A stretch of DNA of 62,632 nucleotides, counting the filler, from Dugesia japonica (Eukaryota): the NCBI GenBank assembly GCA_001938525.1. It is 6 parts of 6 records of this genome, joined end to end, with 100 filler letters (N's around TTAATTAATTAA, not from the genome) between each part and the next. Parts side by side here need not be neighbours in the genome. Positions count along the whole stretch, not along the records: positions 18,355 to 27,504 come from MQRL01603343.1; 5 more parts are not named here. One strand, given 5' to 3'. Position 1 is the stretch's first letter; each line of letters opens with the position of its first letter. Of this stretch, positions 455 to 57,142 are shown one piece after another. The notes beneath the pieces were generated by a model that ran no database searches, was not told where the DNA came from, and worked only from the letters and a program-made list of their open reading frames with translations. Position numbers and translations under genes: made by a program.

Positions 455-1069
455 ATGGAAAGATTAAGAAATGACGCAGTCTATAAAATTGTAGGACCTA
501 GTGGCAGTGGGTAAACATTGTTTGTATATCAATTATTGAAATCAAAGTTATTTAAGTCTAAATTTGAAAACATATACTGGTATAGGGGTGCAGATGAGAA
601 GCATGGATTGACAAAATTTGAATTTTGTAATATTAAAATGAAAATTATAAATGGTTTTGATTCTAATTGGAGCAAAAGATTAAGACCAGGTGATGTTATT
701 GTTGTTGATGATCTGTATCAGGAGGCAAACAAAGAAAAGGATTTCAATAGTTTATTCACAAAAATATCGAGACATCGTAATGTAACTGTGATATTTATTA
801 CACAAAATCTATTTCATCAAAGAGGTAGTCATAGAACTTGTAATTTAAACGTGCAATATTTGGTTTTATTCAAAAATCCTAGAGATCAGTCTGTTGTTGA
901 TTTTCTAGCAAGACAAGCATGCCCAAATAAAAGACAGTTTTTTATTGAATCATTTCATGATGCCACAGACAAATTACGTGGATATCTATTTCTTGACTTT
1001 ACACAACAATGTCCCGATGATTATAGGGTGAGAACAGATATATTCAATCCAAATGGTATCACAATATAA
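455..1069 (+). pseudogene. Polinton A32/FtsK-like DNA packaging ATPase
   Basis: Walker A GPSGSG*T (Lys replaced by TAA at 512-514), Walker B VIVVDDL, FTKISRHRNVTVIFITQNLF, VLFKNPRD. Confidence 0.93.
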
Positions 1070-1334
1070 AAACAAAATAGGTAATTTTTCCTAATATTTC
1101 GAAGAATGACAAAATTAAAGAAATTTTGTAGTTGATCAAGTAACTAATGGCGTTGTAAAACGTCAAAAAATATCTTTAGAGAAGAAAAAGTATGGAAAAA
1201 AGAAGAAACAATCGCATAAGGAACATCATGTAAATAAGAAGCAACGAGTAAATAAAAGAAATATGTTTAAAAAACTTGCAAAAAGAAGGGGAAAGAAGCT
1301 GCGAATAATGAACAGAAAAGCAATTATAAACAAA

Positions 1335-1680
1335 TAAATGGTATCTATTATTTTAATAAATAATGATGAAATTACAAAGAAGCGATCCATTATTTACAGC
1401 TTTGATTAAATCATCAAAACCTTTTAGAATGAGAATTTAACAATCATTCCCACCATATGTTATAGATTATTTACTTGAAATTATTATAAATATTGTTCGT
1501 GGTAATTTAGATTTGAGTGCAACCAAAATGAAAACATTGAAGAAACCTAAAAAAACTTTATTAACTCTTGTAAACTCAAAAAAGAGAAAATCAATGAGAC
1601 GAGTAATGAACAATCGAGGTACTGGTTTTATAGCAGCATTGCTATCAATTGCATTAGCTGCATTAGGCTTAACTCATTTC
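1335..1680 (+). pseudogene. Small basic Polinton protein (core/virion-associated), disrupted
   Basis: LLEIIINIVRGN...KKRKSMRRVMNNRGTGFIAALLSIAL resembles the short Polinton ORF that ends in a GGF-hydrophobic motif. Confidence 0.55.
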
Positions 1681-1909
1681 AAATAAACAATAGTTGAAAT
1701 ATAACAATAACCTNNNNNNNNNNNNNNNNNNNNNNNNNNNNNNNNNNNNNNNNNNNNNNNNNNNNNNNNNNNNNNNNNNNNNNNNNNNNNNNNNNNNNNN
1801 NNNNNNNNNNNNNNNNNNNNNNNNNNNNNNNNNNNNNNNNNNNNNNNNNNNNNNNNNNNNNNNNNNNNNNNNNNNNNNNNNNNNNNNNNNNNNNNNNNNN
1901 NNNNNNNNA

Positions 1910-2100
1910 ACATGTCAATGTTGAAAAGATTTCCAACAAGACCATATAAAGCTTATGGTATTGATGATTTATGGTAAATGTATCTATTTGAAATGATTAA
2001 TAAATTTTACAAGTATATTTTTATCTTTTATCGTTGTATTCATTAGATTTACAAGAGCTGTTCTATTTTAATCAAAGGGACCTGAAAGAATAAACAATGT
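1910..2100 (+). pseudogene. Polinton retroviral-like integrase, N-terminal fragment
   Basis: KRFPTRPYKAYGIDDLW*M...YKYI matches the R.F.RR....GIDD.WQ.DL motif of Polinton integrases. Confidence 0.75.
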
Positions 2101-2170
2101 AAAATGATATAAATACCAAAACCAATTTGAATAGTAGCAACACAAATAAAATAACAAGACAACAATTTTG

Positions 2171-3270
2171 ATGAAATCAAATAATTTCTATACTCTTTTA
2201 CCTAGTAATAGTAGTCCACTAGTTCATCNAAATAATACTGCTAGTAATTACATCGTTGAGCTTCGAAATCCAATTTATATGGATGATAGATGGGAAGTTG
2301 CCATGATGGATTTCACCTTTGTATATTCAACTATGCCGATTTACAGTCAATCTAGGATTGATTATGAATTATTTACAATAATTGAGAAAGAAATAATATT
2401 TGATGTTAACAATAAAGAAAACATAGTTCTTTTAACGTTTAATTTTCAAGACAAATATAAAAATAACAAAGAAACCGTTATACAATTAACGGAAGAAAAT
2501 GTTTTAGTCTTTACTAGTGATATTACATACCACAGTTTAGTATTTGAAAATCAGTAAACTATAAAAAGATTTTCATATTTTAGTGGTGAATTTGTAAGTA
2601 AGGAGAATACATTAACTTTTGATTCTAGTAAACATTTTGGAGATAAAACATTTTTTCTTGGCTTTCAACACTTTAAAAACGATGACTGCATTGAAAAAAT
2701 AATTAAATATTTTTATCCGATTGAAACTAAACATTCTTTTCAATTCGAATATGAATTGTAAATACAGGATTTAAATCAACTAAATGACTNTTTTAAGAAA
2801 CACCTTCCAAAGTTATTTAAAACATTTTCATTAAAACAAGATGAGATATTTGAATTTATATTAGCAAGTAAAACTAAAAGTGTTAAATTCGATAAAATCT
2901 TAACAAAAACATTAGGATTAAAGGAATCGCAATATACTCAAATACACTTTAATGATAAACAACTACTATATAAAAGTAATAAGAAACCTAGAATATTAAA
3001 GTGTTATAATGAAATGTTCATCTATTGTAGTATTATTGAACCTATAATTGTTGGAGATGTTAATGTTCCCTTATTGAAAGCAGTATAGATAGAAGAACAT
3101 GATAATGATGAGGTAATACAAATAATTGTTGATAATCCGATGTATTTACCTATTTCTTCGTCATATATAAACAATATAGAAATCAATATACGTGATGATA
3201 GTCAACTTTGTTAGTCAACTTTGCTGAAGATTCAAAAACACATTTAACGTTACATTTTAGAAAAATTAAT
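2171..3270 (+). pseudogene. Polinton minor capsid (penton) protein
   Basis: N-terminal FYTLLPSNSS..NTASNY...WEVAM and C-terminal MFIYCSIIEPIIVGDVNVPLL...NPMYLPI...IEINIRDD...LTLHFRK; internal stops. Confidence 0.88.
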
Positions 3271-3271
3271 A

Positions 3272-4020
3272 ATGAACCCTGATATTGTATCAATGTATAG
3301 TACTAGTCAAGCAGGTGGAGAATTACCTTACTTTCTGGGAAAACAATATGGATCTTGTTGGTTACGAACAATAGGGAGATTTGCTTTGCCTATTCTTAAA
3401 CGTATTTATTCTTTTGGTATGAAAACAGCTCCGGGTGTACTAGCTAATGATGGCAAAATACTACCCAAATTGAAATCTAATGCATTAACTGAGCTTGGAA
3501 ATGTAGTTTCTTCCTTACCTAGTGNNNNNNNNNNNNNNNNNNNNNNNNTAGCAGGTATATTACCGCAAAGTATAACTAATACAATACCATCTGAAATAAC
3601 TAATATGCTATCAAATCAAGTCCAAAGACTACCAAATATTAGGAAACGAAAGAAATCTCATTTATCACGTATAAACAAACGAATGAGAGGGCATGGAACA
3701 ATATTTGNNNNNNNNNNNNNNNNNNNNNNNNNNNNNNNNNNNNNNNNNNNNNNNNNNTGGCAAAATACTACCCAAATTGAAATCTAATGCATTAACTGAG
3801 CTTGGAAATGTAGTTTCTTCCTTACCTAGTGAAGTTACCAGTATGATTTCAAAAATAGCAGGTATATTACCGCAAAGTATAACTAATACAATACCATCTG
3901 AAATAACTAATATGCTATCAAATCAAGTCCAAAGACTACCAAATATTAGGAAACGAAAGAAATCTCATTTATCACGTATAAACAAACGAATGAGAGGGCA
4001 TGGAACAATATTTGAAAAAT
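3272..4020 (+). pseudogene. Polinton core/protein VI-like ORF (partly duplicated by assembly)
   Basis: QAGGELPYFLGKQYGSCWLRTIGRFALPILKRI motif, basic C-terminus; lies immediately before the major capsid gene. Confidence 0.65.
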
Positions 4021-4225
4021 TTGCGGTAAAACTGAATTATGTATTTTTGATCGACCATCTCCCAAAGCTGTAATTGAAAATGGTACATTCGAAGATGTTT
4101 TTCCTATGAATTCAATTTCTGAATCACAAAGTGATTTAGAGTTTTTTATAAATGGATCTCAAACAGAATATTTGGATTTGAATGATTCTTTATTGTATAT
4201 TAAATTAAAAGTTGTTGATAAAAAG
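4020..4225 (+). pseudogene. Polinton major capsid protein (double jelly-roll), N-terminal fragment
   Basis: LCIFDRPS...VIENGTFEDVFPMNSISESQSDLEFFINGSQTEYLDLNDSLLYIKLKVV, then abrupt truncation. Confidence 0.85.
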
Positions 4226-9733: not shown

Positions 9734-9833
9734 NNNNNNNNNNNNNNNNNNNNNNNNNNNNNNNNNNNNNNNNNNNNTTAATTAATTAANNNNNNNNNNN
9801 NNNNNNNNNNNNNNNNNNNNNNNNNNNNNNNNN
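9734..9833. other. Artificial contig linker
   Basis: 100 bp N44-TTAATTAATTAA-N44 (stop codons in all six frames). Confidence 0.97.
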
Positions 9834-15725: not shown

Positions 15726-17390
15726 TTATCTGTTGTTTTTGTATATTTTAACGTTTCTTTTCCTTTTTGGGTCCTTATGTTTTATTAAACACTGCTCGCA
15801 ATCTGGCAATCGTGAAAGTGCATCAGCATTAATATGTTCACGAATTTTTCTAAATTCTACGATCATATAAAAAATTTCCAGTTCAGCTTTCCATATGCAG
15901 TATTGTGACGTATTTGGGCTACCCCAATTAAGCATCCATTTTAATGCTTGATGATCTGTTTGCACAACAAATTGTGATCCCATTAAATAGTACTTAAACT
16001 TATGGACAAACACATATATTGCCAGAAGCTCTTTTCTTGTGATGCAGTACTGTTTCTGACTTTATGTTAGTGTTTTCGATGCATAGTATAATACTCGTTC
16101 CTTGCCATCTTGTACTTGAAAAAGTACAGCACCAATTGCGTTGTGAGAAGCATCTGTATCCAAGATATATTTTCCATCCTTTGTTGGCAAAGCTATCATT
16201 GCTGGTTCTGTCAACCGTTTACGTAGCTTGTAAAAATATTCTTAATTTTCATCTGTCCACTGAAATTTGTTTTCTTTCATTAGCATCAAACTGAGAGGTT
16301 TTGATAAATTTGCATAATTCTTTATGAATCGATTATTATAATTACAAAACCCTAAAAATGTTTGAAGTTCTTTTCGACATTGAGGAATCTCACATTTTTG
16401 GATTGCCATTATCTTATCAGGATCTGTTGCGATTCCATTTTTAGTTATTATATGCCCTGGATATTGTATTTTGTCCTGTACAAATTTACATTTATTTGGT
16501 GCTAATTAAAGTCCAGCTTCTCTTATTCTTCCTAATATTTGATCTAGTCTTTCATTATGTTTTTCTACAGTTTTACCGAATATTAAAACATCGTCCAAAT
16601 ATATTACGCCCTTTTTCCAATTTTCATTTCGCAATACAATATTCATAAGCCGCTGAAATGTTGCTGGTGCTGAGCATAATCCAAACGGCATTCTAGTAAA
16701 TTCGTATTTTCCAAACTTTGTGCCTAATGCTGTTTTTCCATGATCTTTTTTAACTATCGGCACTTGGTGATATCCACTTGAAAGGTCTAGAGTTGAAAAA
16801 TAGTTAGCTCCAGCAATACTGTCAAATATTTCTTCTGATGATGGTATTGGAAAGATTGGTCGGTTTGTTTTAGCATTCAATGTCCTGTAGTCAATACACA
16901 TACGGTTATCACCGTTTTTCTTTTTTACCACTACAATTAGAAAGCTTTATGGAGAAGTCCTCGGCTTTGCAACACCAAAATCTATCAAATTTTTTACCAT
17001 ATTTTTTACTTTATTTTCGAGTCCTTTTGGTATTCTTTGTGGCTTGAAAGCAATTGATATGCTATCAGTTGTTTCTATTTGATGTTCAATCATATCAGTT
17101 TTACCCACATCTATCTTATATCTACTAAATACATCTTTATTCCTATCAAGAATTGACAATGTTTTGATCACATCGTAGTAATTGTTTGTAACTTTCATAT
17201 CATTTTTAATTTTCTGCAGTATATTTTCTGTAATTTCTTTCTCTGTTCTTTGCTTTTCAGAGGACAATTGTCTAAGTGATACTTTTTCAAACACTTTTTC
17301 ATTTTTATTACACTCTTCTACATATCCGAGTGTAGTTCCAGTGTCTAAAGTTTTACATCCGCCTTCTAACATATATATTCTTACCCACAA
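15726..17390 (-). mobile_element. Ty3/Gypsy pol fragment (RT and RNase H), disrupted
   Basis: VKKKNGDNRMCIDYRTLN, LDLSSGYHQV, RMPFGLCSAPATFQR, YLDDVLI, TDHQALKW, NADALSR. Confidence 0.95.
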
Positions 17391-20029: not shown

Positions 20030-21648
20030 ATTCTTACAATAAAGCTCTTGAAATGTGGAAAATTACTGGATAATAACTTATTTGACTTAATAATGGTTTA
20101 TTTAAAACTTCATGTTTTCTTTTGACTGACTTCTTCCAGCAATTTAGACAAAAATCTTTAGCTCACAATAGACTTGAACCGCTAAACTTCTTTAGAATTC
20201 CAGGCATGTCATTGGCTTTTGCCTTGATGACTTTAATCGATCCAATTCAGTTATTGACTGACAATGACTTGTATACCTTCTTTGAGAGTGGTATTGGAGA
20301 AGACCTTATCCTTGTTAACAAGCATTATGTGTTTTATGATGAATAATTTAAATATTAATATATATAAATTAATAATATAAATTAATATAAATAATTTATA
20401 TGATTAAGCTTTAAGTCAAAATCTTCCTTATAAGAATTTTGAATGAATTTATTCTGGTTTTGATAACTTATTGAATGATTGTTTGATTTTTGACTTAGAT
20501 TCTTTATCTTATGGATATACTTTTGAGGTTAATATAAAAATTCCTACTAAATTAGATAATTATTTATCTGATCTTCTTGTTGCTGCTGAACACCAAAGTC
20601 CACTTGGATCTAAGGTAAAAAAGTTGTTGCTAATACATTATCCTAAGAATAATTATATTGTTGATTGGAGATTGTTGCTAATACAATTACAGTTAGGTGT
20701 TAAAATTAATAAAGTTCATAGAGCTGTTAAGTTTAGACAGGACAATATTTTTAAGAAATATATTGATGATGCTACCCAATTAAGAGAACAAAGTAACTCA
20801 GATCTCGATAAAAATTATTATAAATTCTTGAATAATAGTTTTATGGAAAATCTGTAGAAAATCTATTGATTCGTATGAATCTTAGACTTTGCAATTCGGC
20901 TAAAAAGCTTGTAACTTATACGCTGAAACCAGGCTTAAAGAAATCCATTAAGATAGATGATCACTTGATTACTGTCTGGTTGAGTAAGGAATTGGTTTGT
21001 TTAGATAGACCTAATTACACTGGTCAAATAGTTTTTAATCTTTCTATATTAAGGATGTACCAATTACAGTACATTGAACTTGAGAAATATAGGAAGGAAG
21101 AGAATTGTAAGATCAATATTAATGCTGGTGATACCGAAAGCTTCTTCCTTGAAGTTAAAGATATCAAATTAGAGAAATTGTTAGGCTTAATGGTTCGTAA
21201 TAATCTGCTTGATACTTTAAATTATTCTAAAACACATCCTCTGTATAGTGATAAGTTGAATTCAGTTATAGGAAAGTTTAAAGATGAAAATAAGGGTAAT
21301 AAGTATAAGAAATGGTTGTTCTTGAGACTTAAGTGTTACAGTTTTCTTAGCGATAACAAGTCAATGAAAACTAAAGGTGCAACACTGAAAGATAGTGGCA
21401 TTAACTATAAGTCATATCTTGATTGTTACAACAACAATAAAAAGGTCTCAGTACAACAATTTAGGATAGGAACTAAAAATCATCAGTTGTTTAATTTTAA
21501 CGATTCAAAAATAGCACTATCTAAAACTGACAACAAAAAAGTATGGCTAGAAAAGAATAAAAGTCTACCATACGGCCATTGTAGTATTCCGACCAATAAT
21601 AATGAAGTAACAACCAATGTAAAGGTAAAAACTTTATTTGTTAATTGA
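20030..21648 (+). pseudogene. Polinton pPolB catalytic domain, inactivated
   Basis: YLKL.V..LTD.FQQFR, PGMS, F.ESGI, YYKFLNNS, catalytic DTDS changed to DTES, IGKFKDE, LR.KCYS, SLPYGH. Confidence 0.92.
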
Positions 21649-21819
21649 AATTAATTAATTTTTTATTATTTAGTAATTCAACTCATTCGTTAAAATAGTT
21701 CAAGAAGATTATCAGACAACAGATTTTATTGAAATAACTATAAGTTTGAAAATATTTTTGTTTTTAATATTTTTATTTTTATTATTTTATGTAAATTATT
21801 GTTGATATTTACCTGAGAT

Positions 21820-22590
21820 TTAATTTAGAAATGTTCGATGGAATGCGGCAGATTGATACACAAAGGCAGTATTTTGTAAGGTAGTATGATGTACTAGAAG
21901 GTTGAATTTGGCAGCATCCATGGTTTTTTCTGTGAATGTATTCTCATACTGAAGCTTATCTAATATTTTAATGTAGAACATAAAATGTATTCTTTCAGCC
22001 TTCAATATTTTTATTAACTGATGTTTTTGTTTTTTCAAAAACTGACCATAACTGACTGTTCTAATGTCATTATTAATTTGTTTCATTGTTATGGAGTCAT
22101 GCTGGGTGGAGATGTCTTGGAATTCACTGACAGGATCATAAAAATCGGGAAAGTCTTTCTGTTCGAGAAAAGGGGTGAGATGGGAAAAGCGCGTACTATT
22201 GTTATACGGCATTTCAACCATGAGGGTTAGTGAGACAATTTGTCCAACAGAAGGTTCTTTAACATAACAGAAATTTGCACGACGTAATTTGGTATCATAA
22301 ATTTTTTGGGATCTACAAGAAGGACAAGGTACATTATCTGAGTTGGTTATATTAAAATATTCAGTTATACAAGCAAAACAAAAGAAGTGCTCACATGGTG
22401 TGATACGGGGTAAAATAGACTGGTCATAACATAAAGGACATATAGGTTTGTCTGTGATAAGTAACGTACCTAGTGCAATGTCTGGCCAACAAAAATTGTA
22501 AGGGTTTGTTAAATTCCAGTGTTTCTCATATAAAGTTATACGTGCTGTCTGCAATATAAACAATTGTTGTGATTGATAACTGGAATTCAT
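21820..22590 (-). CDS. C3HC4 RING finger protein, RNF10/Mag2-like, intronless
   Basis: CPLC...PRITPCEHFFCFACITEYF...CPSC followed by VGQIVSLTLM and C-terminal FVYQSA.....FLN, parallel to RNF10 (as recalled). Confidence 0.75.
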   Translation of the reverse strand: MNSSYQSQQLFILQTARITLYEKHWNLTNPYNFCWPDIALGTLLITDKPICPLCYDQSILPRITPCEHFFCFACITEYFNITNSDNVPCPSCRSQKIYDTKLRRANFCYVKEPSVGQIVSLTLMVEMPYNNSTRFSHLTPFLEQKDFPDFYDPVSEFQDISTQHDSITMKQINNDIRTVSYGQFLKKQKHQLIKILKAERIHFMFYIKILDKLQYENTFTEKTMDAAKFNLLVHHTTLQNTAFVYQSAAFHRTFLN

Positions 22591-22672
22591 TCTAAAATAT
22601 ATAATATTAATGATAGGGCTAGAGAGAGATACTATAATAACAATAGATAAATATATATAGTTCTTTTTTATG

Positions 22673-23734
22673 TTACTCATTGTTAACTGAAAGTGTAAGT
22701 GTNNNNNCCTTTTCCGTGACAGCGATGGTGTTAAGCAAAACATTTTCAACAACAAATTTTAATGTCTTCTTACTATCCTCTTTAATGGTTGTTAATCTAA
22801 TGCGTTTCTTTCCAAACTGTAATTGCATATCTTTACCTGATATTCTTTTCAAAGTGTTTTTTGCATTGCTAATATTTCCATCCAACTTATCTATTTTGAG
22901 GGCTCTATTCAAATTGATTGTGCCCCTACCAGGTTTGTATATATCAATTTGTGGTCCAGAACCGAGGTCATCACTGTCGCTATCCGTATGATACGGCATC
23001 ACCTCGAAATCTCCTCTTACTTGATCCAACCTAAGATCTTCCACTTCCTCACCTGACCAGTATTCAGTTTCACTTTCAGACACCTTTTGTTCTCTCTGTG
23101 ACATTGTCCGTTCTGGAATCTCATCATCCTCAGATGCGTCCATATCTGTTTGTATCTGTTTAGGATTTCTTCGTATCATATCATCAATTAGTGTCTGCTG
23201 CTCACCAGTGTCGTTATGCGGTCTAAGTTCTTCTGGTAAGTCTTCCTCGTTCCACTCTATATCTATGTCATTACTCATATTAGATTGACTATCTGTGCTT
23301 CTATCTGTCTCTTCTCCATTCTCTTCCATATCTGAATCTTGTTCAGAATCTAATATCCATACTACACTATCTGGTTTCTCCTGTTCTCTAGTCATGACTT
23401 CTTGCAATATTGACGCATTATTTTCTATACCTTGCATAACCGGATTATTACCAGGATATATAGAATATTGCCATGGTTGCTGAGTAATTATTTGTTTGTA
23501 TATAATCTTTATGAATGTTATTCGTTTTGCTGTCGATTCCTGCGCTTTTTCTCTCGCTGTTTTCAACATATTTCTGATGACCCTATCTTGTCTTATGGGT
23601 TTGAATACTGCTTCCATAAGTTTGATCAATTTCAACTTCTTTACATTTGGAATATTACAATCATATGCTACCATCGCATTTGCTCCTCTTGCTAATTCCA
23701 ATAACATTATTATAATTGTTATTATTGTACCCAT
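22673..23734 (-). CDS. Signal peptide plus AYDCN glycoprotein stub fused to an acidic low-complexity region
   Basis: TIITIIIMLLELARGANAMVAYDCN matches TTILLLFLIMGRSEAILAYDCN at 54140-54210; the rest of the ectodomain is missing. Confidence 0.65.
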   Translation of the reverse strand: MGTIITIIIMLLELARGANAMVAYDCNIPNVKKLKLIKLMEAVFKPIRQDRVIRNMLKTAREKAQESTAKRITFIKIIYKQIITQQPWQYSIYPGNNPVMQGIENNASILQEVMTREQEKPDSVVWILDSEQDSDMEENGEETDRSTDSQSNMSNDIDIEWNEEDLPEELRPHNDTGEQQTLIDDMIRRNPKQIQTDMDASEDDEIPERTMSQREQKVSESETEYWSGEEVEDLRLDQVRGDFEVMPYHTDSDSDDLGSGPQIDIYKPGRGTINLNRALKIDKLDGNISNAKNTLKRISGKDMQLQFGKKRIRLTTIKEDSKKTLKFVVENVLLNTIAVTEKXXTLTLSVNNE

Positions 23735-24167
23735 TAGTGGTCAATTTGATTTTTTTAGTTTCTTTATTAATAAGTTTCTTTATTTCATCTTCTTGTTCTG
23801 TTTGTTGAATTTTTTGTTTACGATTATTTGTTGGATATAACGTTTCCCAACCTCCTTCTTGTGTGATCCACGCGTTAATCCCTTTATTCCAAAATCGATT
23901 AACTATTCGTTTTACAACCAAAATATTTTTATCCGGTTTCTCAACTAATTGTTCTCGATTCTTAAGTATTATATACGAAATAGCTGTGATTACTTTAATT
24001 TTATTTATTCCTTCTTTCATCATTGTTTTTATCACTTTATAATCATCAATTTCNGGATCTGCTATTATTAATTTGCTCACTTCTTTTATTATGAGTTTCA
24101 TGTCTTCGAATATCATTAATGCTTTATTCTGAGTTATTATGCAGTCATATAGATCAGCATGTACCAA
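23735..24167 (-). CDS. Bcl-2-like domain
   Basis: BH1-like MMKEGINKIKVITAISY and BH2 NAWITQEGGWETL (23844-23870). Confidence 0.72.
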
Positions 24168-24199
24168 TTTAATTAGACTTCTTATAAGTCCTTGATCTG

Positions 24200-25121
24200 A
24201 TCCTGCTTATGCTTGTTCATCATATCTTTGTGATATATTATTCAAATGTTCCGCTTGCACTTTTTCTGGTATTATATCCTCTAATTTTGGTCTACCTCTT
24301 GATCTTTTGTAATCTGATACTTTGTCTTTAAATACTTTCTGTCTTGGCATCTCGCTTCTTACATTATCTGATGTTGATGGTTTTTCATTCCTTGTGGTCG
24401 ATGTTGGTGGCTATTGCTGGCTTGCTCTTTCCTCCTCAGCTTTATTTGCTTGTGCCATCATACTTAAAATTTCTTCCATAGATTGTTGTTGATCATCTGT
24501 TAATACTTGTGGCTTATGTTTCATAAATGTCGCTTTTATGATATTAATCTTACCTGGAATAATTCCATATTCCATCAATGTTTTGTTCTCATTTAGTTCT
24601 GTATTGTAGAACGATAGCTGTATCACATCTTCATTTTGCAACAATACTGGCCAATATCTATTTACTATTTTATATAATTTATTTGTTTTTGTACACGCAT
24701 GTACTGTCAATTCTAATGCTGTCACCGAGCATTCGTTTTTTCCTGCTACCACTTTGATATTTAATGACTCTTGCAACATTTCGTTTCCTTTTACGTATTC
24801 ACTATATTTTTGAAATATCTCATCTATTGTTTCTAGATTTTCTGATATCTCTATTCTGTTTCGACTCTTTGCTAACATGATTATTATTGGTTTAATTTTT
24901 TGAAAATTGATAGGATATTCGTTAACATCTTTCAAATATTGTAACAATCTAAGTTCATTAATTCTTTCTTTTGTTATTTCCAATCTGACATTCTCTATCA
25001 ATATTTCTTGCTTCTTTTCGTCTATTGCATCTAAATCTACTTCTGTTGGTTCACACATATTTATTTCATATTCCTCTCTCTCTTCTTGTCTCTCCATCAT
25101 ACGCTGATAATGTATTTTCAT
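24200..25121 (-). CDS. Ubiquitin-like domain plus AT-hook (one in-frame stop at 24411)
   Basis: IQLSFYNTELNENKTLMEYGIIPG resembles the ubiquitin C-terminal half; KRSRGRPKL at 24282-24308 is in the same frame after the stop. Confidence 0.65.
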
Positions 25122-25219: not shown

Positions 25220-26405
25220 TCAGAATACTTCTAGAATCATTTGGTTTATTTCTACNNNNNNNNNNNNNNNNNNNNNNNNNNNNNNNNNNNNNNNNNNNNN
25301 NNNNNNNNNNNNNNNNNNNNNNNNNNNNNNNNNNNNNNNNNNNNNNNNNNNNNNNNNNNNNNNNNNNNNNNNNNNNNNNNNNNNNNNNNNNNNNNNNNNN
25401 NNNNNNNNNNNNNNNNNNNNNNNNNNNNNNNNNNNNNNNNNNNNNNNNNNNNNNNNNNNNNNNNNNNNNNNNNNNNNNNNNNNNNNNNNNNNNNNNNNNN
25501 NNNNNNNNNNNNNNNNNNNNNNNNNNNNNNNNNNNNNNNNNNNNNNNNNNNNNNNNNNNNNNNNNNNNNNNTTTCTGTTGTAATTGCTATAATTTCTTTG
25601 GTAATAATCCGTTTTAAATTTTACATCCTGCTCCTTTCTACTATCTTGACGATTTTGATATGCTTTCCTCATCTCATTCCATGACGATTCCTCATTGCTT
25701 GCATATATTTCAATTGCATATATTTGTCTGGTTTTATCTTTATGTTTTGTATTTGCCTCAATTTGTCTCGTTTTTCTTGTTAGTTCTTCTAAGTTTTTAT
25801 ACTCTGCTGCAATTAGAGCATCACGAATATATTTATGTGTCCCATTTAGAAATTGAAATTCTATAGTATTATCTCCTTTTCCAAAAGCTTGCTCTGCTAA
25901 CCTTGTTAATTTATATATATATTCGCCCACTATTTCATTTGTTAATTGTGTTCTATCTCTAAAGTTTTGTATACAAATTCTTTCTAATTCACTTGGAACT
26001 ATTATCTTTTCCTCAATTTTGCTATTAGATCATTCCATTTATCAGGTTTGGCATCCAGATTTTTATAACATTTTAATGCNTTTTAATACTGTATTTTAAT
26101 TCTTTTAAATACAGTGGCAATCTTTTAATTAATTCTGCTTCAGTCCATCCATAAGCTGTGGCACAGACCTGCATATGGTCAAAGTATTCATCGGCCTCCT
26201 CAGGTTTCCCTGCATAAAATTGTATTGGTAATATATTTAATGTACCTCGGTGTCCAAATTCACCTCCTACTTGATCATTAATTGGTAAATTTTTAAATGG
26301 CATATTCACAGTATTATTATTTGCTGCAGCCATTTTTTTGATCTCTCTGTTTCTCAAATTATATATTGTATTCTCTTCAATGATTATTCCTTCAGTTTTT
26401 TTCAA
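25220..26405 (-). pseudogene. Gag capsid (Ty3/Gypsy retrotrans_gag type), frameshifted, contains a gap
   Basis: FYAGKPEEADEYFDHMQVCATAYGWTEAELIKRLPLYLK; R.Q...E.VGEYIYKLTRLAEQAF...QFLNG. Confidence 0.85.
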
Positions 26406-26414
26406 CTGGAATGC

Positions 26415-26570
26415 TAATAATTATTTTCTTCGGTATCGTTTCAAACAGTATACTAATCAAACAAATTCTTCGGTATCATTTCAACCGGAATACTAATCAA
26501 ACAAATTCTTCGGTATCATTTCAACCGAAATACTAATCAAACAATTTCGTCGGTTTGGTTTCAACCGATA
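26415..26570. repeat. 40-bp tandem repeat (~4 copies) in the gag leader
   Basis: TTCTTCGGTATCATTTCAACCGGAATACTAATCAAACAAA repeated. Confidence 0.85.
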
Positions 26571-26830
26571 AACTCTGAATCACATTTAACTTTATTACTT
26601 AAAGGGAACTGATTATATATTATCAGAACTTTGACAAGAGATTGCGGTAGGAATTCGATCCAAATCTAATACCAAACTTAAGATAATCAAATTAATCAAC
26701 TTTGATAAGAGATCGTAGTAGGATTTTCTCCAATATCTGATATCAAACTGATCAATACACGGTATATTTTAATAAAGGTTTGAAAACCCCCTTGATTTTA
26801 AAATAATTTTAATGATTTTTATTATTTTGA

Positions 26831-26849
26831 TTCCCGGTTCGCGGCACCA
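26831..26849 (-). promoter_or_regulatory. tRNA primer-binding site (His- or Phe-like)
   Basis: TGGTGCCGCGAACCGGGAA four nt after the LTR end ...CCAACA. Confidence 0.85.
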
Positions 26850-26853
26850 AATT

Positions 26854-27504
26854 TGTTGGATATTTAACTCAACAAAAGTTTATGGTTCGTATTAAAATGG
26901 TTGTAAGATTGTGTATAATTTATCTTTTTAATTATTGTTATGCAATGTATGTAGCTACAAATATTATATAGACGATATTTTTACCAAAAATATAAATAGA
27001 ATTATATATTGTATAATTCCTTGTATAAATTAAATAAGTAATCACATTTAAAATATTTATTAGGGATATATACTTCAACTTATAAGCGATAGTTTATTTA
27101 AAGAAGGAAAGCCACTTAAAGAAAGAGGTTTCCTTAATTAAAAAATGTCTGAAAAATAAACTGACATACGTCAGTATTTATAGTAAAATTTACACTAGGC
27201 CTCATGCATTGACCTAGTGATTGTTATTCAAAATTTTTATTTATAAACATAAAATTTTCCATAAAAAATCAAAATTTTTACTTACAGATAATAATAAAAT
27301 TTTCCATTCAAATAATAATAAAGTCTAATTTACAGATAATAATCAAATAATAATAAACTCCAATTTACAGATAGTAATAAAGTTCAACATAAAATTTTCA
27401 AGTTCAACATATTTGTAAAATAATAAAATAAAATATAATGCCAGCATTGAAATAAAATATAATGTCAGAAAATTTTCAAGTTCAGCATAATAATAAAATA
27501 AAAT
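26854..27504 (-). repeat. 5' LTR (3' part only; cut by contig end)
   Basis: Ends ...TCCAACA just upstream of the PBS; internal short tandem repeats at 27280-27500. Confidence 0.75.
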
Positions 27505-32913: not shown

Positions 32914-34261
32914 TAGGATTAAATTGAAAGTCTTGTCCGATAGAAAATAATATTTATTTAACCAATAAAGACAAAATGTAACTTGAGAAATATAAACAAA
33001 ACATCATTCGTGCGTGGATCTGAAATGTTAAAAATAGTCACTTTTAAGGTACACACACTTGCCAGTATTCTGGAATTTTTTTTATGCCATTAGCATAGAA
33101 TTCTGCAGGGTTTGAAGCGAACCAGGTTTCCAAATCACCGTTAACTTCTTCAGCAGAGTGATACGTTTTCCCACGAAGTGAGTTTTTCATAGGAGAAAAC
33201 TGGTAATAGTCGGATGGAGAAAGGTCTGGGGAGTATGGTGGATGTGGCAATACCGTAAAACCGATCTCAGCAAGCTTACTTCAAGTTAATCGTGGTCGAG
33301 CGTTGTCCTGGAGAAAATTGAAATTTTCAAAACGGTTTCCACGCAGTCGGTGTCTTTGTTGTCGAATCGCATCTACGACTTTGACCAACTGAGTGCAGTA
33401 AATTTATGCGTTTATGTTTTTTCCTTGAGGAAGTACATCACACAGAATAATTCCTTTCACATCTCAAAAAATGGTTGCAAGGTGCTTTTGTGCTGTCAAA
33501 CATCGATGAATTGATGTTGTTGGTTGATCAACGATCGTGATAAGATAGATTGGCATTGCCCCAATATACCCACACCTCATCCACCGTTATGAGTTGGAAT
33601 AAAAAGTCGTTCCGTTGGTGCATAGTCAATTATTCGCCACAAATTCTTTCCCTGTTGGCTTTATTTTCATTTGACAAAAAATGTGGCAACCATTGCCAAG
33701 TATTGCTTTCCCATTTTATGCAAGTGTCGGAGTATTGTTGTATGAGACAACGACAGCTCTTCTGCCATATTACGAGATGAAGCATATTTGATGTAAGTCA
33801 GAACCTCTTTGATTCGATCTTCTACATCATCTTTAAGCAATGGTCGCCCGCTTCTCTCTTCATCATCAACGACGAAATCACTAAAAATGAATTTTGCAAT
33901 TTTTCGCTGACAGTTTCTCGCTGACACAGTACATGTGCCAAGCATGGAGTTAATGTTCTTCTCAATTACAGGCGCATTCATTCCATCTTTCCACAAAAAA
34001 TACGTCAGCTTTTTTAAGTCGCTTCTGTTAAACTCCATCATATGTNNNNNNNNNNNNNNNNNNNNNNNNNNNNNNNNNNNNNNNNNNNNNNNNNNNNNNN
34101 NNNNNNNNNNNNNNNNNNNNNNNNNNNNNNNNNNNNNNNNNNNNNNNNNNNNNNNNNNNNNNNNNNNNNNNNNNNNNNNNNNNNNNNNNNNNNNTACATG
34201 TTGTCTTTATTGGTTAAATAAATATTATTTTCTATCGGACAAGACTTTCGTTCCAATCCTA
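32914..34261 (-). mobile_element. Mariner (DD34D) transposon, full length, decayed transposase
   Basis: ~65-bp TIRs (TAGGAT...GAAAGTCTTGTCCGATAGAAAATAATATTTATTTAACCAATAAAGACAA), TA flanks; ERSGRP, ITVDEVWV, QDNARP, HPPYSPDLSPSDY. Confidence 0.95.
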
Positions 34262-47257: not shown

Positions 47258-48176
47258 GAGCCGCCGATCCCTCAGAAAACTCTCGGTACTCCCCCAGGAA
47301 GAATTATTAAAAGTGTGCATGTTACCCCGGCATTAATGTAAAAGGAAGGAAGAAAGCCAGAAGAGTTCGCCTATACTACAGCAAAATGGGTACTCTCACA
47401 CTCAGGAAGAGATAACCTAGCATAATAAGGGAAGACTTAATCAAGGAAATTAAAGGAAGTTTAAAGGAAGACTTATTTAACGAAAATTAAAGAAAGTAAA
47501 GCAAGGAAGATGATTTTAAGACTGTGATGACAAGTATGGAGCAGCATGATAGTAAAGTAAGTTTAAAATCTGGAAAAGGAGTGATTGCCTCCTCAGTAAA
47601 GACAATTAGGAGAAAAATTTATTCTAGAAACCCAAACCACAAGTATTACAAAACCAAAACCGAAGCACAGCGAGAAACCAACTAACCAGACTCTGACAAG
47701 AAGATTCCGACTCGGAAAATAGGAAACCACTTACAAGGTCCAACACAACGGGATTATTTACCTCAAGCTCAGTTCTAAAAGAAAACTAACTTTCGAGGCA
47801 AAAATCATCAAGGAAACTAAAGAACTCATCACTTTATTTGGACCAGGAAGAGAATATTTGTTGACTCAGGAAACCAGAATTCGACAAAACAGTATCCAAA
47901 ACTAAAACGTTTGTAACCATCAGCTCTAACAGTAGTCCGAGTGATAAGGAAAATAAAACTAACCCGAAAACCACATCCGGTAAAATTTCGGTAGCTAGTA
48001 ACTGATCAAGTGGGATAAGTTATACCTCAGAGGAATCAGAAATTACAGAAGTAACAGACAGTAATCAAGTAAACACCGACTCAGTGGTAACACGGTCAAA
48101 CAATTTAGAAACCGAAACACTCACATTAACAAACCAAGACCCGAAAATAGAAACTAATCTAGTAAAAGATAAAAGC

Positions 48177-49200
48177 ATGGCAAACAAAACTGAAAGCCAA
48201 CGACCAGAGTGGAAAATAAAATTTGATGGCGAATATTTTAGTGGAATACCAGAGAAGTTGGATGAATTTATCCAAAACTATGAAATGTACGCCAAAACTT
48301 GTGGTTGGGACGAAGAAGCAAAAAGAAAGCGGTTACCTGCTTATTTGACAGGAGTAGCTAAAACTGTGTTCTGGGATCACACTAAGGGCATGGAAGCCAT
48401 ACCCGAAATGGAAAGATGTGGTGAAAATATTAACCGATAATTTCCAAAATTTTAAGTTGACTGGCCAAGACTTCGAACAATTTACCAATCGAAAACAGCA
48501 GCGAGGAGAAACTCCACAGACTTATATGATGGAACTCTAGAGACGCGGCAAACTAGCCCTAGCAGATAAACTGGAAGATAGTAAAGTGCTAGCCATATTC
48601 TTAAATGTTTTACGCGATGAGAACGCCAAGCTAATAGTAAAGTTGAGTAAGCTAGTGACTCTACAGGATGCTCTAGCCACGTTGCGAATTGCAGCAGATA
48701 GACCTTCCAAACGGATATTCAAAGTTGAAGGACAGACAGAGGAGACCACACCAAGGATATCGGACTTCATACCTAACACCCAATCAATGATGAAAACCCT
48801 GACTCCAGGGCAAGAACGGAATAACAGGAATGATTGGCCCAACTACCCACGAGGAAATGGTGGAGGATTTAATATCCCTCGGAACAATTGGCAAAATAAC
48901 CGAGATATACAATGCAATACCTGTGGAAGAAGGGGGCATATAGCCCGCGATTGTAGAAGTAGAGGCATTATTAATAACAACAATCGATTTTGTACCTATT
49001 GCAAGAAGACCGACCACAATGTAGAAACGTGCTTTTTGAAAAACCCAACTGTCTTTTATAAGTGTAACAGAAGAGGGCATATGGCCAAGGAATGTCCAAG
49101 CGGAAATCAAGCAAGTTACAATCGAAACCCGAATGCAAATCTGGATAATCTAATGCAGAAAAACGAGAGATTGAGGCAGCGAGTAAATCAAAATAAAGGA
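48177..49200 (+). pseudogene. gag: Gag capsid plus three CCHC zinc knuckles
   Basis: FSG.PE.LDEFI..YE......GWDE......LPAYLTG.A; CNTCGRRGHIARDC, CTYCKKTDHNVETC, (F)YKCNRRGHMAKEC. Confidence 0.93.
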
Positions 49201-49619
49201 CAAGTAAACTTGGTGCACCAAAGTACTTTCGATAACGTGTACCACAATGCCCAACAAGAAAGTGATTGGCTTAAATGGCAAAACCAGGATTTGCAAGTAC
49301 AGCAGGAAAGACTAGCAAGGAGAAACTTGCTAAACGAACCACACAAGAATCAATGTAATATGATCAGAACCCATAGACAAATCTATAACCAACATGACAA
49401 AACCACGGAAGTTATCGAAATGGAAGACACGCGGAAACAACTCTTGATTACATCACCAGAATTCGAGTGGACTAATGAAATCATCTATAAAACAATAGAA
49501 ACATCAACCACAACCACCTGGAGAAGACGAGTGACGAATCAGTTACTTCGATTATACCAACACCCACAAGTACATACAAAAGTAAAAGCTAATTGGCAGA
49601 AAATAATATCGGATTACAT

Positions 49620-52600
49620 CGCCGAGCTCAATAAAGAAACTCAGTTAGAAGACTATGAATTCGAAATTCAATATGTATGGCATAACAACCCGGAGGTAAT
49701 CCCGAAACGACTAAAGCTGGTACTAAAGGAAATGACAGTTCGTCACCTAAAAGAAGCTATTAACTGAATAAAATGGAGAGAATTAAACGGTATTAAAGGT
49801 ATGACGGTAAATCCGTTTCTCGAATCACCACCATTTAACGATCAACAACAATGGAATGGAAAATGGAATAGGCACAGACTGCAAATAGGTAATATATGAA
49901 TCAATATTCTTCTAGATGATAAGAATCTAATCTATTACGGGGCACAACCTCACGAAACAACCGATATCAAACTGATAAACCGGGGATTGGTCTTCAGACT
50001 CCAAATAGTAATTCAGGAGATAGAAACAGACGAGTTATATCATAACCTCAAAGTAACATTTATAAAAGAAATAGTTCCTACTCAGGCTCAAAACTACCTA
50101 CGAAAACGATTTGAAAAGTTGAGACTAAGGGACTATCCAGACCTGGAACAAAAGGAAGCCTCGCGATTATCCTTAGCCCGAATTAACGAGATACTTATAG
50201 CTGCCCAGAAACTCCATGATACGATAAAGAGGGGTGTATACTTGAAGTTGACCAATCGATTAGTAGAATTATTAGAAGTTATGAAATTGATCACAAATTT
50301 TGAAAGCGATTGGACAGAATGGTTACCTGTACATTATGATTTGGTAATATCCAACATGGGATTATCAGAATACAAAGTATGGTTGTATAACCCAGAAGGT
50401 AATATGAAACTGACACTCACGGGATTAATGGTAAAAGATCTGGAATCGGCACTTAATCAAGCAGGTTATCCATGTGTAACTGATAAATATGTATGTACTC
50501 CAAGTGCAATAGTGGATTTTAATGCCAGAAAAAGACATCTCTACGATTTTGAAGTAAAGCTAGGAGAAGAAATTGATCTTGTAGTATTGGACAAACACCC
50601 TGGTATTGATTATGACATATGGGTAACGAAAACCGGAAGATCGGCATTAGAAATCATGGGGGAATGGAATATCTATATAAACAAGAAGTAGAACCTATAA
50701 AATTAAGATACTTTCCACAGTATTGGGAAAGAAAGACAAGCTAACAAAGGAGGAAAGGAAGCAGTTACTGATGACGCGTAAAGATTTTCTCAAACAACGA
50801 TTAGAGAGAAGAGACGGGAAATGCAACATGATAAGAATGCGACAAATGCCGTCAAGGGAAGTAGTAGCAATGCGTAAAGTGGAGGAAATGGTTAAACTAT
50901 TCCATCAGAGTCAGTCTCCTCAGCAAAGAGGGAAGCATAAAAAAGGTGGATATGATAGTATTGGAAGGATTAACTATCCGACATGTTATAAAACCAAATA
51001 AGAAGTGGTTATGGCCAAAATCACTCAAGTCATATAAAATGCAGGCGGGAGCAACAATGATCATATTGGCCAAGAAAGAAGATCATATTTTCCTACACGA
51101 TATTAAACCAGGAGAGACCACTGAAATCAAGCTACGCCTCGGAAAATGACAATAGATATTCCTATACCAAAAATGCCGGATACCGATCAACTTATATTCA
51201 ACATGATGAGTCTGTATATACAAGAAATATTACCGGTAGAAAATGAACGTCTCATAAATACGTACGGAGAAAGCAAAGCCCAAGTAAACATGGTCAGGAA
51301 TAATGGATCCAAAATCCCAGTCCTGACATCGGATGAGGAGGAGGAGGAAGAAACCGCAGACGATACCGTCAAACCCAAACTATTACCGTTTAAACAAGAA
51401 TTTGTTGGCCCTTTCAGGTCCCCTCAAGCCAAGCGGATATCAAAGATAATTTCTGATTTCTGTTATTTTCTGGGAAAAATACCCAGGGCAAAATTTTGGA
51501 ATGCAATAAATTTACTAACGGATTTGTCAAAATATACCGAAATAGTAAAAAAGAACGTAATTAGTGGAAATCTATACTCAAGTTGCATACTGGTGCAGTT
51601 AAGGCCAGTGCCAAGGGAGATGATTTTCAGGTCACCATAGAATATTGGACACCAAACAAGAAACCCAGAAAGGAACAAGAATTGGCCTTAATGTACATTC
51701 CACATTTCGATAGCACAGGAGCATCGGAATTACAAGAAACTATAGAGTCGTTGGATATAGCTGATCAACAGAGTGGCTACGTAATCACAAGTGACCATTT
51801 GTGATTTCCTATCAAGTTTGAAGGAAACAGCATTTAATGAACGTAGGGTTGAGATCAGGGGAAAATACTTTTCTCTAAATACAGAAACCCGAATATTACA
51901 CTCCAGGTCCAGTAAAGTCTATGAAAGAAGTATTACGACAACTCGAAGATTTATACGAACAAGAAATCGGCAGTGGAAAACTGTTTGAAGAAGTCGACGA
52001 TAGAACAATGGAGATAAATATTGAGTCATGGGAAGATAGTAAAACTTGGGGAAGCCTGCCTCGAGTAATAATGAAAATACTTAAGACACGACAAAGTTAT
52101 GCAATTAATCCTTAAGTTAAATCAACTACGAGCTATAAGTCGAATGCCAGGAGACGTAATGGATGTAATATTAAATAAAGCAGTTCGCATGATAACTAAT
52201 GAAGCAGTTGACGTAATAATCAAATTTCCGGATGAAAGCGAAATTCATTGGCAGGTCCAAATGAATGAAACATGGGCTAAGTTACGGAAAAGGATTATAA
52301 AATTTATGAACCAACAGTGTATCCTTGACGAGGAGGAAAATGGAACGCAACCATTAGTACAAGAAGACGACATAGTGCTCTATTATAACCAAGTAATAGA
52401 ACCAGACCAAATGAGATTGCCAGTGAAATATATCGGGATTTCGCCAGGAACTAAATTGAAAATGTATGTAACAGCAAAGAAGGCGGAGAGACGACGACCA
52501 CGGGTCTCGGAGAAAAATGGAAACAGGAAGCCAGAGAAGTAGTGGAATATTATATCGAGGAGATACATCCACTAGTATTCGCAAGAGCTAAGCTCCCTAA

Positions 52601-53120
52601 ACAAGAACAGGGTAAACCACGAGTGGAGATGGTAGCAGTTCTGACAAACACACCCGCCAAGGATCAGAAGCCAGAGGACAATTTACCAAAATTATTCGAA
52701 TTGCTAGTCGGTGATAAGTTAATAAAGCCAGAAATCATACGTCGATCCAATATAATCCTACAACAAGATCTGGCAGTAGAAGACCTCAGAAAACTACGAC
52801 GGTTAATTATGGCCATCAAGGTATCCCATGTGTGGGATCCGATTCAATTCAATAAAATTTTGGTTTAATGGCGAAAAGCGGAAATGGGACAAGCCACTCC
52901 CTTGAAAATCAAATTTAGAATAATCGATCTGGAAAGAGACAAGATTACGGTTAAGATACCGGTATATAATACGGTAAAACACTTACGGGATAAGCTACCA
53001 TTTAAGCCACCCGGATGAGGATGAAATAATAGAAGATACCACTCCAATCGGTCTAATGAAAATAAATTTAGTTAAACCTAATACATTATGGATTTTCCAG
53101 AATTAGGAGGTACTCTCACT
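49620..53120 (+). pseudogene. Accessory polyprotein region with multiple ubiquitin-like (beta-grasp) domains
   Basis: TVRHLKEAI...LIYYGAQP; MVKDLE...LYDFEVKLGEEIDLV; VDVIIKFPDESEIHWQVQMNETWAKLRKRI...YIGISPGTKLKM; TVKIPVYNTVKHLRDKL. Confidence 0.6.
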
Positions 53121-53624
53121 CGGAAAGACGCAGACCCTTACAAGGCAGCAGATAAAACGAGACCAATAAAAAACACAAAATATTCACCTCCAACTAGGAA
53201 AAGTGAAGAAATAAGGGTCAAAGGGTCAACACGAAGTAAAAAATATGATCCTAGCAAGGTAGATTTGGATGAAGAAGATGTATTGGAAGAACAACCATTA
53301 TCACCAATATTGAGTAGAATAGCAAAAGAATTGCCCTCCTCAGTTATGGACGTTTTAATGGATACAAATCACCCCTTAGAAATGGAAAATACTATAGAGA
53401 CAGAAGAGGAAGAAGTGCCGCCAAAACCAGTACGCACCCGAGTAGATGTAGAAACAATTACCGAACCTCCCATTTGAGGCAGACCAAGAACAAAACCTCC
53501 GGGAAATCCGGAGGAGGAGGAAGCATTAAAACAAAAACGATTAGCAACATCAATAAATCACTAAACCAAGAGATTAGCAACGGTATCACAGGAAAGAGAT
53601 CACGAGAATTCAGCGGATGAGGAC

Positions 53625-54015
53625 ATGCCCACAGAATTAGTAATACGGCAACTATTGTTAATGCTTTACCCAGAGCTAAAGATATGGATTGGTAAATTCG
53701 AACTATCCGATGGCCTCAGACTGCTTGCAAAGGAAATAGAAGCGGCCATCAGGAAATTTCCCGCTACTAAAGGAACTAGTTATGGTACAAAAGACAACCT
53801 AGAAGGGGTAATGGATGAGTTGCTACAGGATTCATCAACGAAAGGGAGAATAGTGGAGTCTTTAGCGCATTTTTATTAATCAAACACATCTATCAATCGC
53901 TAGAAGCAAGCCGTCAAAAAACTTCATTCTTAGTAAATTACCGATATTGGATTTAATGCAAAACAAAATTGGGCCGCTGATAAAGCAGCAAGGAGGATGG
54001 AAAAGTTTATTGAGA
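53625..54015 (+). pseudogene. Bcl-2-like domain (frameshifted)
   Basis: BH3-like LRLLAKEIE, BH1-like VMDELLQDSSTKGRIVESL, BH2 LIKQQGGW/EKFIE at 53977-54015 (alternate frame). Confidence 0.75.
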
Positions 54016-54139
54016 CCATATGCCCTAAACCACAGCCATCACATGAAAATGCAACTAGAGTAATAAGGATTGTTCGGGACCAGTTAAATGAGATCGAGAA
54101 TGGATGGGCACGTGAGCCTCGCGGAAATTCTTGGCAAGC

Positions 54140-56424: not shown

Positions 56425-56469
56425 TCACAACAGGTATGGGCACCAGGTCCCATATATAACACCCCTTAT

Positions 56470-56985
56470 ATGGGTTCACCACAAGCTCGTAATATGGCAT
56501 TATTAACAGAGAACAATTTATCAACGATTGACCGAAGAATTACTGACCAAAATTTGTACTCTCCAAATAACCAAATTACTGAGGACGATAAACTAGAAAC
56601 TCAAACTGTGTGCATGATGATCTCTCCGCGAGCAAAACTATTACAAAAAAGAATAAAAATAGATGGAAGATGGGTACTAGCCATTATCGATACGGGAGCA
56701 AGTACGACGTTAGTCCACAAAAGGGTACTAGAAGACTATCGACTACTCCGAATAACAATTCCTAAAGGAGTTATCATCACAGTCTCGGTGGAAAAGATCT
56801 CACTCGTTGGACAAGCAATATGTGCAGTAGAAAGTGACGGACTACGTCTATGGCGTAAACTACAAATAATGAATGAACTAACTTTCGACTGTTTATTAGG
56901 ATTGGATCTCTTACCACGCCTTTGTCCAGAAGGGATATTAGACCTGCGGAAACTAACCATAAGGGAGAATCATGATCGAGAATAA
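56470..56985 (+). CDS. Retropepsin aspartic protease 1
   Basis: AIIDTGASTTLV and CLLGLDLL; same frame as the env tail, separated by one TAA. Confidence 0.9.
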   Translation: MGSPQARNMALLTENNLSTIDRRITDQNLYSPNNQITEDDKLETQTVCMMISPRAKLLQKRIKIDGRWVLAIIDTGASTTLVHKRVLEDYRLLRITIPKGVIITVSVEKISLVGQAICAVESDGLRLWRKLQIMNELTFDCLLGLDLLPRLCPEGILDLRKLTIRENHDRE

Positions 56986-57142
56986 GCGCCGGTAGGGTAT
57001 CAGAAAACTAGAATAATAACCCAACAAAGACGATTAGCCATGGAATCAACCAACGTACAACCAAAAACCGTGACTCTCACCAGGCAGAGGCGAGCAAGGT
57101 AACTCAAACCAAAAGCGTGAGAAAACTACAAGCACATCCACC

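Follow-up and report, generated by a model that had tools for sequence, protein, structure and literature searches.

The ubiquitin ligase RNF10 (animals; Mag2 in yeast) marks stalled ribosomes for degradation; it ubiquitinates the ribosomal proteins uS3 and uS5, and its overexpression lowers 40S levels, according to the available portions of three reports (PMC11604940, PMC12008924, PMC13075771). Herpesvirus deubiquitinases counter the ubiquitination of the 40S subunit (RPS3), and parasites gain from such interference, as stated in the accessible text of another source (PMC12914758). Burro/GYPSM1 are giant Gypsy-like long terminal repeat (LTR) elements of planarians; in the sections available, ubiquitin-like (Ubl), Bcl-2, BIR and MATH cargo and the idea of the element as a "tinkerer" are already published, and host manipulation is proposed for the Ubl, Bcl-2 and BIR cargo (PMC6431247). 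LTR-mediated retrocopies formed by template switching have been described in animals (Tan et al. 2016, PMC5131818, in excerpt). Here, a window of 62,632 nucleotides from the planarian Dugesia japonica (assembly GCA_001938525.1), in which 100-nt spacers connect separate contigs, was analysed, and an RNF10/Mag2-related open reading frame (ORF) with a RING domain was characterized beside a pol-less Burro-like element on the contig at 18355-27504. The reading preferred here, with a probability of roughly 0.6 as a whole, is that this RING ORF is a diverged, truncated RNF10 relative that was captured from mRNA as cargo of a Burro-like element, was copied in trans, and is a predicted E3 ligase in intact copies.

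An initial annotation had described an open, intronless C3HC4 RING ORF with RNF10-like motifs, co-oriented with the ORFs of the element and following them, and each of these points is borne out. The ORF spans 256 residues from its ATG, and its stop-free frame extends upstream through an assembly gap to 22758; a stop-free run of at least 256 occurred in none of 2000 shuffles of the same stretch (median 66, maximum 152). It lies on the strand of the gag, Ubl-like, Bcl-2-like and env-leader/acidic frames and downstream of them, with a 5-N gap in between. The encoded architecture consists of pre-RING strands, the C3HC4 RING, a post-RING beta block and a helical hairpin, ending just past an F-x-Y-Q motif. 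The RING matches Pfam zf-C3HC4 at E 1.4e-7, and no other C3HC4 pattern occurs in any of the window's six frames. The motifs VGQIVSLTLM (from residue 115) and FVYQSA (from residue 243) both align to conserved RNF10-family blocks, and no intron interrupts the copied part, a single open frame that follows the family alignment from end to end of that part. In addition, an Arg directly follows the last RING Cys, a state found in 0 of 79 RNF10-family rows; this site is the linchpin position of many active RINGs.

Word-index protein searches gave no match, and the exact proteins are absent from the collection; phmmer over 1.84 billion protein representatives returned 381 matches. Among the best 150, 127 contain a RING and at least 60 residues after it, and 79 of the 127 form one family by their post-RING sequence. 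The name RNF10 stands on five of the 20 clusters looked up (locust-labelled, Trichuris, Geranomyces, Lottia and Hydractinia), the rest being unnamed or generic RING proteins. On a profile of the 79 members the ORF scored 108.9 bits and the next best of 972 scored pieces of the window 7.6, with no other RNF10 piece in the window by this measure. The ORF with its RING masked still reached 27.1 bits and the post-RING block alone (residues 93-135) 24.1 bits, neither score being attained by any of 200 shuffles; the profile was built from the query's own matches, and masking removes most, not all, of this circularity. W35, the eight zinc ligands, L102, L123, Y245 and Q246 lie on conserved family columns in the alignment, and the ORF keeps 24 of 41 such columns, every zinc ligand and no internal stop at about 25% identity to any relative. 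AlphaFold with 97 alignment rows gave a predicted local distance difference test (pLDDT) score of 80 and a predicted template modelling (pTM) score of 0.78, and a single-sequence run gave pLDDT 30. On sequence grounds the ORF is RNF10/Mag2-derived, and the origin proposed in the initial annotation is supported by search, RING-masked profile and alignment together.

The ORF resembles RNF10/Mag2 in the C3HC4 RING, the predicted fold, the post-RING beta block with an invariant Leu and the helical region; a conserved Trp 16 residues before the RING and the F-Y-Q motif align as well, although neither piece scores above shuffles by itself. It differs in its length (against a family median of 620 residues), its low identity and its multi-copy, element-linked state, and its E3 activity is a prediction. 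Its end falls within the conserved C-terminal subdomain: 186 well-filled family columns lie beyond its last residue, and it is without the complete subdomain (H-L-P motif), the basic helix and the tail of RNF10/Mag2. An NLNHLL-type N-terminal extension is likewise absent, and the acidic ORF upstream scores nothing on the family profile. Because these two membership features, the C-terminal part and the N-terminal extension, are lacking, the ORF is not classed as an RNF10 orthologue. An INLN stretch in the acidic ORF, considered as an RNF10 N-terminal motif, was ruled out by the profile test. Fold searches with the model gave matches limited to the RING; BFVD contained no RNF10-like fold at E 0.001, its rows being RING-only, and the PDB copy searched contained no structure of the RNF10 core domain. 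ESM Atlas returned pan-eukaryotic unnamed C3HC4 proteins of 399-608 residues at 0.91-0.92, a weak result given a recognition value below threshold. Two further loci (L001 and L002) were chance matches, and an off-frame tblastx match (E 0.008) between the RING region and a second element of the window was treated as chance.

The best single-stretch match among those listed (E 1.9e-11) is P0003, an unnamed 319-residue protein on a 7,015-base Logan contig that forms a singleton cluster. Like the RING ORF it is core-only and has the Arg after the RING, and both carry E126 and F250, either of which is found in 0 of 95 other rows; unlike the ORF, P0003 keeps a complete C-terminal subdomain. A quick tree of 71 rows, which omits 12 family rows under 380 residues, set the ORF on a branch of 3.1 joined to P0003 (Shimodaira-Hasegawa-like approximate likelihood-ratio test 94). 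Both branches are long, and this join may be a long-branch artefact, although E126 and F250 are common to the two proteins. In the 15 viral loci fetched with P0003, likeness is confined to the RING.

Other genomic copies were seen as short Logan contigs of sequencing runs (X-numbered); the copy and linkage evidence covers 16 of 12,787 and 32 of 1,514 records, and summed contig depth, counted at 90% likeness, is an order of magnitude and not a copy number. One contig from X11 (22623-22839) and one from X8 (22664-22895) run across the 5-N assembly gap between the RING ORF and the element without a single difference. Four joints with a side of more than 40 letters, three from X3 and one from X11, tie the RING to the acidic side in other copies among the records listed, and one of these joints stands on a record about 83% identical that covers the first RING cysteines. 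The spacer between the two ORFs varies in length among copies, some lengths allowing one continuous frame; in the examined copy they are in different frames. Summed depth ran to 269-413 over the RING ORF, a level comparable to the 349-550 of the acidic ORF and some ten times the 33-35 reached by contigs identical to this locus. Related copies recur next to the same neighbour, so capture of an RNF10 relative by the element family is likely, and the RING ORF is most likely cargo of a Burro-like sub-family. The earlier placement of the gene at the 3' end of the element, as its cargo, finds support in the pairing of the RING with the acidic ORF upstream, which several copies show. As a separate observation, in each of the four runs examined 22026-22086 and 22292-22341 within the RING ORF attract additional depth and loose ends, pointing to a more diverged, more abundant repeat that shares these stretches.

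The neighbour on the other side is a remnant of a Polinton-type DNA polymerase B (polB), and the initial annotation had named ownership by this remnant as one case that would overturn its own view. The RING ORF abuts and converges on polB, its four-fold sites do not differ in composition from those of polB (p 0.16), and Polinton-like adintoviruses carry small RING genes (Oncoid, a RING-only match), all of which would suit cargo of the Polinton. However, depth is only 81-163 over 21705-21834, with a deeper block on either side; among the records listed, every contig crossing the RING-polB junction shows 0 differences and stands at single-locus depth (DNA runs X1, X2, X3 and X5); and all four listed diverged records that extend past the 3' end of the ORF continue with other sequence from 21823-21835. 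Because depth drops, the junction occurs in locus-identical contigs alone and the diverged copies go elsewhere, the Polinton assignment is largely refuted and very improbable. For the examined copy a cut at the 3' end is probable; it would account for the truncated domain as well as for the lack of a 3' LTR. The polB pieces carry RNA reads from related copies, and a further Polinton-type remnant at 638-4073 (+) contains an A32-like ATPase (PF04665, E 0.012) and additional ORFs.

A splice-donor-like site 7 bases past the stop of the RING ORF would fit an exon of the host RNF10 gene that was hit by element insertions, but an in-frame stop precedes that site, the ORF is multi-copy and diverged, the confirmed RNA runs hold no reads of it, and the window holds no other RNF10 piece, which leaves a host exon very improbable. 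The four-fold sites of the RING ORF are without the A bias of the element (A:T 26:31 vs 144:67, p 0.003), as expected of foreign sequence, and their composition is not different from that of the acidic ORF (p 0.12).

The features of the locus are collected in Table 1. The pol-less element agrees with Burro, in the part of the description available (PMC6431247), in the order of gag, Ubl (PF11976), Bcl-2-like frame and env start, each domain match being weak, and differs in that an acidic region and the RNF10-derived ORF replace the env body and pol. Neither the env body nor pol (protease, dUTPase, reverse transcriptase, RNase H and integrase) was found in the element. Because the env leader stands alone without them, the element is read as a non-autonomous Burro-like derivative. 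A single open frame of 342 codons covers the env leader together with the acidic region, and 16 residues of the leader match the env start of the second element at E 0.009. The Bcl-2-like frame matches Bcl-xL chains at E 0.15-0.7 and the same region of the second element at E 0.012, and the Ubl/SUMO-like ORF gave no PDB match at E 1. No Pfam family was found in the acidic region. Its P-x-I-D-I-Y-K-P-G stretch at 22930-22950 (-) is similar to the motif by which SMG6/UPF3 bind the exon junction complex; in a PDB search, the part of the ORF containing it returned no SMG6/UPF3-type peptide. At the 5' end, the record X1-8 joins 26875-27076 to unrelated flank, and three 40-nt tandem units (26426-26574) lie in the leader between the primer-binding site (PBS) and gag.

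Table 1. Features of the contig carrying the RING ORF, listed from the polB remnant to the 5' LTR (positions in the window)
Feature	Position	Strand	Basis or remark
Polinton-type protein-primed DNA polymerase B remnant	20447-21648	+	PF03175 E 6.3e-5; convergent with RING ORF
AT-rich junction, RING ORF/Polinton remnant	21649-21819	.	crossed only by locus-identical contigs among records listed
RNF10/Mag2-derived ORF	21820-22590	-	256 aa from ATG; search, profile, alignment, fold model
C3HC4 RING	22315-22440	-	residues 51-92; all 8 zinc ligands present
AT-rich spacer, acidic ORF to RING ORF	22591-22707	-	5-N gap 22703-22707; hydrophobic 19-mer in RING frame
env-type signal peptide and first env residues, fused in frame to acidic low-complexity region	22673-23734	-	
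Bcl-2-like frame (weak but consistent)	23661-24206	-	Pfam Bcl-2 E 0.77; TIGR00865 E 0.02
ORF with Ubl/SUMO-like stretch (weak)	24411-25121	-	PF11976 E 0.024
gag, in pieces, partly under N gap	25220-26420	-	Retrotrans_gag E 0.027; gag of second element E 3e-6
PBS-like sequence starting TGG, four bases after CA end	26832-26849	-	sequence
5' LTR or part	26854-27504	-	contig ends at 27504

Several observations weigh against the cargo reading. Within the protein, the RING departs from near-invariant family positions (L55, G67 and the hydrophobic residue after P90). Taken by themselves, neither the stretch before the RING nor the tail motif is significant, as 25 and 18 of 200 shuffles, respectively, did as well. 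The tree puts the ORF outside the animal RNF10 rows, with no starred set containing it. Were the module read as one polyprotein led by the signal peptide, its RING might end up on the wrong side of the endoplasmic reticulum. No 3' LTR or second LTR copy was found in the 9.1-kb contig or the rest of the window. The earlier suggestion of looking for the gene inside the LTR boundaries of other copies is answered in part, by the RING standing beside the acidic ORF in diverged copies. The half of the element from gag to Bcl-2 is 2,143-48,003 deep, far above the acidic and RING ORFs; most element copies would therefore lack these two, which by an order-of-magnitude estimate make up a module with tens of copies, joined to a far larger family. 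Depth steps near 23500-23600 (an estimated position), and among the records listed a single diverged one (X1-6, 92% identical, 23414-23606) probably spans the step, while X8-31 leaves the alignment at 23464. The link of the module to the gag-Bcl-2 half probably rests on the examined copy and X1-6 among these records. Finally, there were 0 reads on 21585-23480 in the confirmed RNA runs X22 and X21.

The sharp step, the departure of X8-31, the lack of a 3' LTR and the different base bias would also be expected if the module belonged to a separate repeat, of another LTR family or virus-like, that recombined with the Burro-like element in the examined copy or in a few copies. The open frame of env leader and acidic region nevertheless runs uninterrupted through the step and the 92%-identical record probably continues across it, which renders a separate repeat quite improbable.

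In the confirmed RNA run X22, 128 reads aligned with a quarter of the run read, and in X21, 11 reads with 6% read; none of these 139 was 99% alike to the window. Locus-identical pieces are present in X8 and X11, which are only guessed to be RNA, and the 35 records of X8, against 920 for the DNA run X3, give a weak hint of selective presence; X8 is without identical cover at 22277-22663, which proves nothing. At least 7 sites of the RING ORF, where nearly all other copies differ from the examined one, fall on all codon positions (2 of 7 on third positions), and 12 hand-picked differing sites in the acidic ORF do likewise, all of them together being a small sample. Such a distribution fits drift in a dead copy, and the examined genomic copy is likely dead.

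These data also suit a neutral passenger, in which the element took up part of a rapidly evolving RNF10 paralogue of the host and multiplied it without benefit to itself, the conservation dating from selection in the host prior to capture: the examined copy is truncated and the element broken, the differing sites are spread as in drift, the confirmed RNA runs hold no reads, and most element copies are without the module. By contrast, copies 8-18% different remain collinear over the ORF; the identity of the ORF to all RNF10 proteins found is about 25%, and it has in common with the unrelated P0003 two states that are absent elsewhere. A ubiquitously expressed close parent should also give reads at 90% likeness in X22 or X21, where none were seen. 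A passenger of this kind is regarded as unlikely. Even a neutral cargo would be a dated example of LTR-mediated gene capture that multiplied.

Under the preferred reading of functional cargo, an RNF10 mRNA would have been captured long ago by template switching and would have replaced env-pol in a Burro-like element, and the resulting acidic and RING sub-family would have been copied or mobilised in trans. As in LTR-mediated retrocopies, an uninterrupted, seemingly host-derived ORF lies within LTR-element sequence on the sense strand of the element; the retrocopies described in the available part of the source are young and single-copy, with a known parent and LTR pieces on both sides, whereas the RING ORF is old and multi-copy and its 3' side is missing (PMC5131818). 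Capture of a host E3 by the element is what we infer. A fold and a full set of zinc ligands kept at 25% identity call for long purifying selection, either in the element or in the donor lineage. The host-manipulation toolkit that the initial annotation saw in the RING together with the Ubl and Bcl-2 cargo is a hypothesis, of a kind published for Burro, and the examined copy is truncated and has no reads in the two confirmed RNA runs. Intact copies are predicted to function as RING E3 ligases using E2-ubiquitin supplied by the host, and at the target they could either ubiquitinate uS3 or compete with host RNF10.

That the target still lies in the 40S/initiation ribosome quality control (iRQC) pathway is a guess, possible but short of probable; it is reasonable in that RNF10 acts on uS3/uS5 and herpesvirus deubiquitinases counter that step, as far as the accessible sources describe. 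The herpesvirus factor is a deconjugase, in contrast to the RNF10 homologue present here (PMC12914758, in part). No mapping of the RNF10 regions that bind the 40S subunit was found in the portions available of PMC11604940, PMC12008924, PMC13075771 and PMC12914758. Burro was already suspected of meddling with apoptosis and ubiquitination, and an RNF10-derived cargo would extend this to ribosome quality control; viruses attack that process with deubiquitinases, and a captured ligase copy was not found in the literature searches. The core-only form also delimits a natural minimal RNF10 domain and offers a test of the parts needed to find stalled 40S subunits. The widest version, rather unlikely as a whole, has a non-autonomous family of Burro-like elements that exchanged env-pol for a streamlined RNF10 and steers host 40S quality control (iRQC/18S decay) to its own advantage. 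Such a family would be the first mobile element to carry a ribosome-surveillance ligase, and would belong to a wider, unrecognised clade of core-only RNF10 derivatives, including P0003, on mobile DNA.

Literature searches found no RNF10 cargo in mobile elements; the primary Burro paper, its supplements and Repbase entries, which lie outside that search, may list a RING. An "AIR1" annotation usually marks CCHC knuckles. The Burro ORF1 motif list includes "AIR1 ... RING Zn-finger" and, in the part available, does not name RNF10 (PMC6431247). RNF10 cargo is likewise not mentioned in the accessible text of PMC13524379 or, by whole-word search, of PMC8532177.

A second, decayed Burro-like element that retains pol occupies 47258-62632 (+) and contains no RING; its order from gag through env to protease, dUTPase, reverse transcriptase, RNase H and integrase is that of Burro, and its likeness to the pol-less element is at the protein level only. 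It encodes gag zinc knuckles, a weak Ubl, a Bcl-2-like stretch and a Monjiviricetes-type fusion glycoprotein (PF24664, E 3.5e-33), then aspartic-protease-like ORFs (56470-56985 and 57143-58153) followed by dUTPase, reverse transcriptase, RNase H and integrase, with further unassigned frames at 60951-62080 after the integrase. The 100-nt spacers of the window (N44, TTAATTAATTAA, N44) stand at 9734, 18255, 27505, 38493 and 47158, and the contigs flanking them are not physical neighbours. Elsewhere in the window, a Gypsy pol fragment at 16506-17372 (-) and a mariner-like transposase fragment at 33667-34041 (-) were recognized, both judged by eye.
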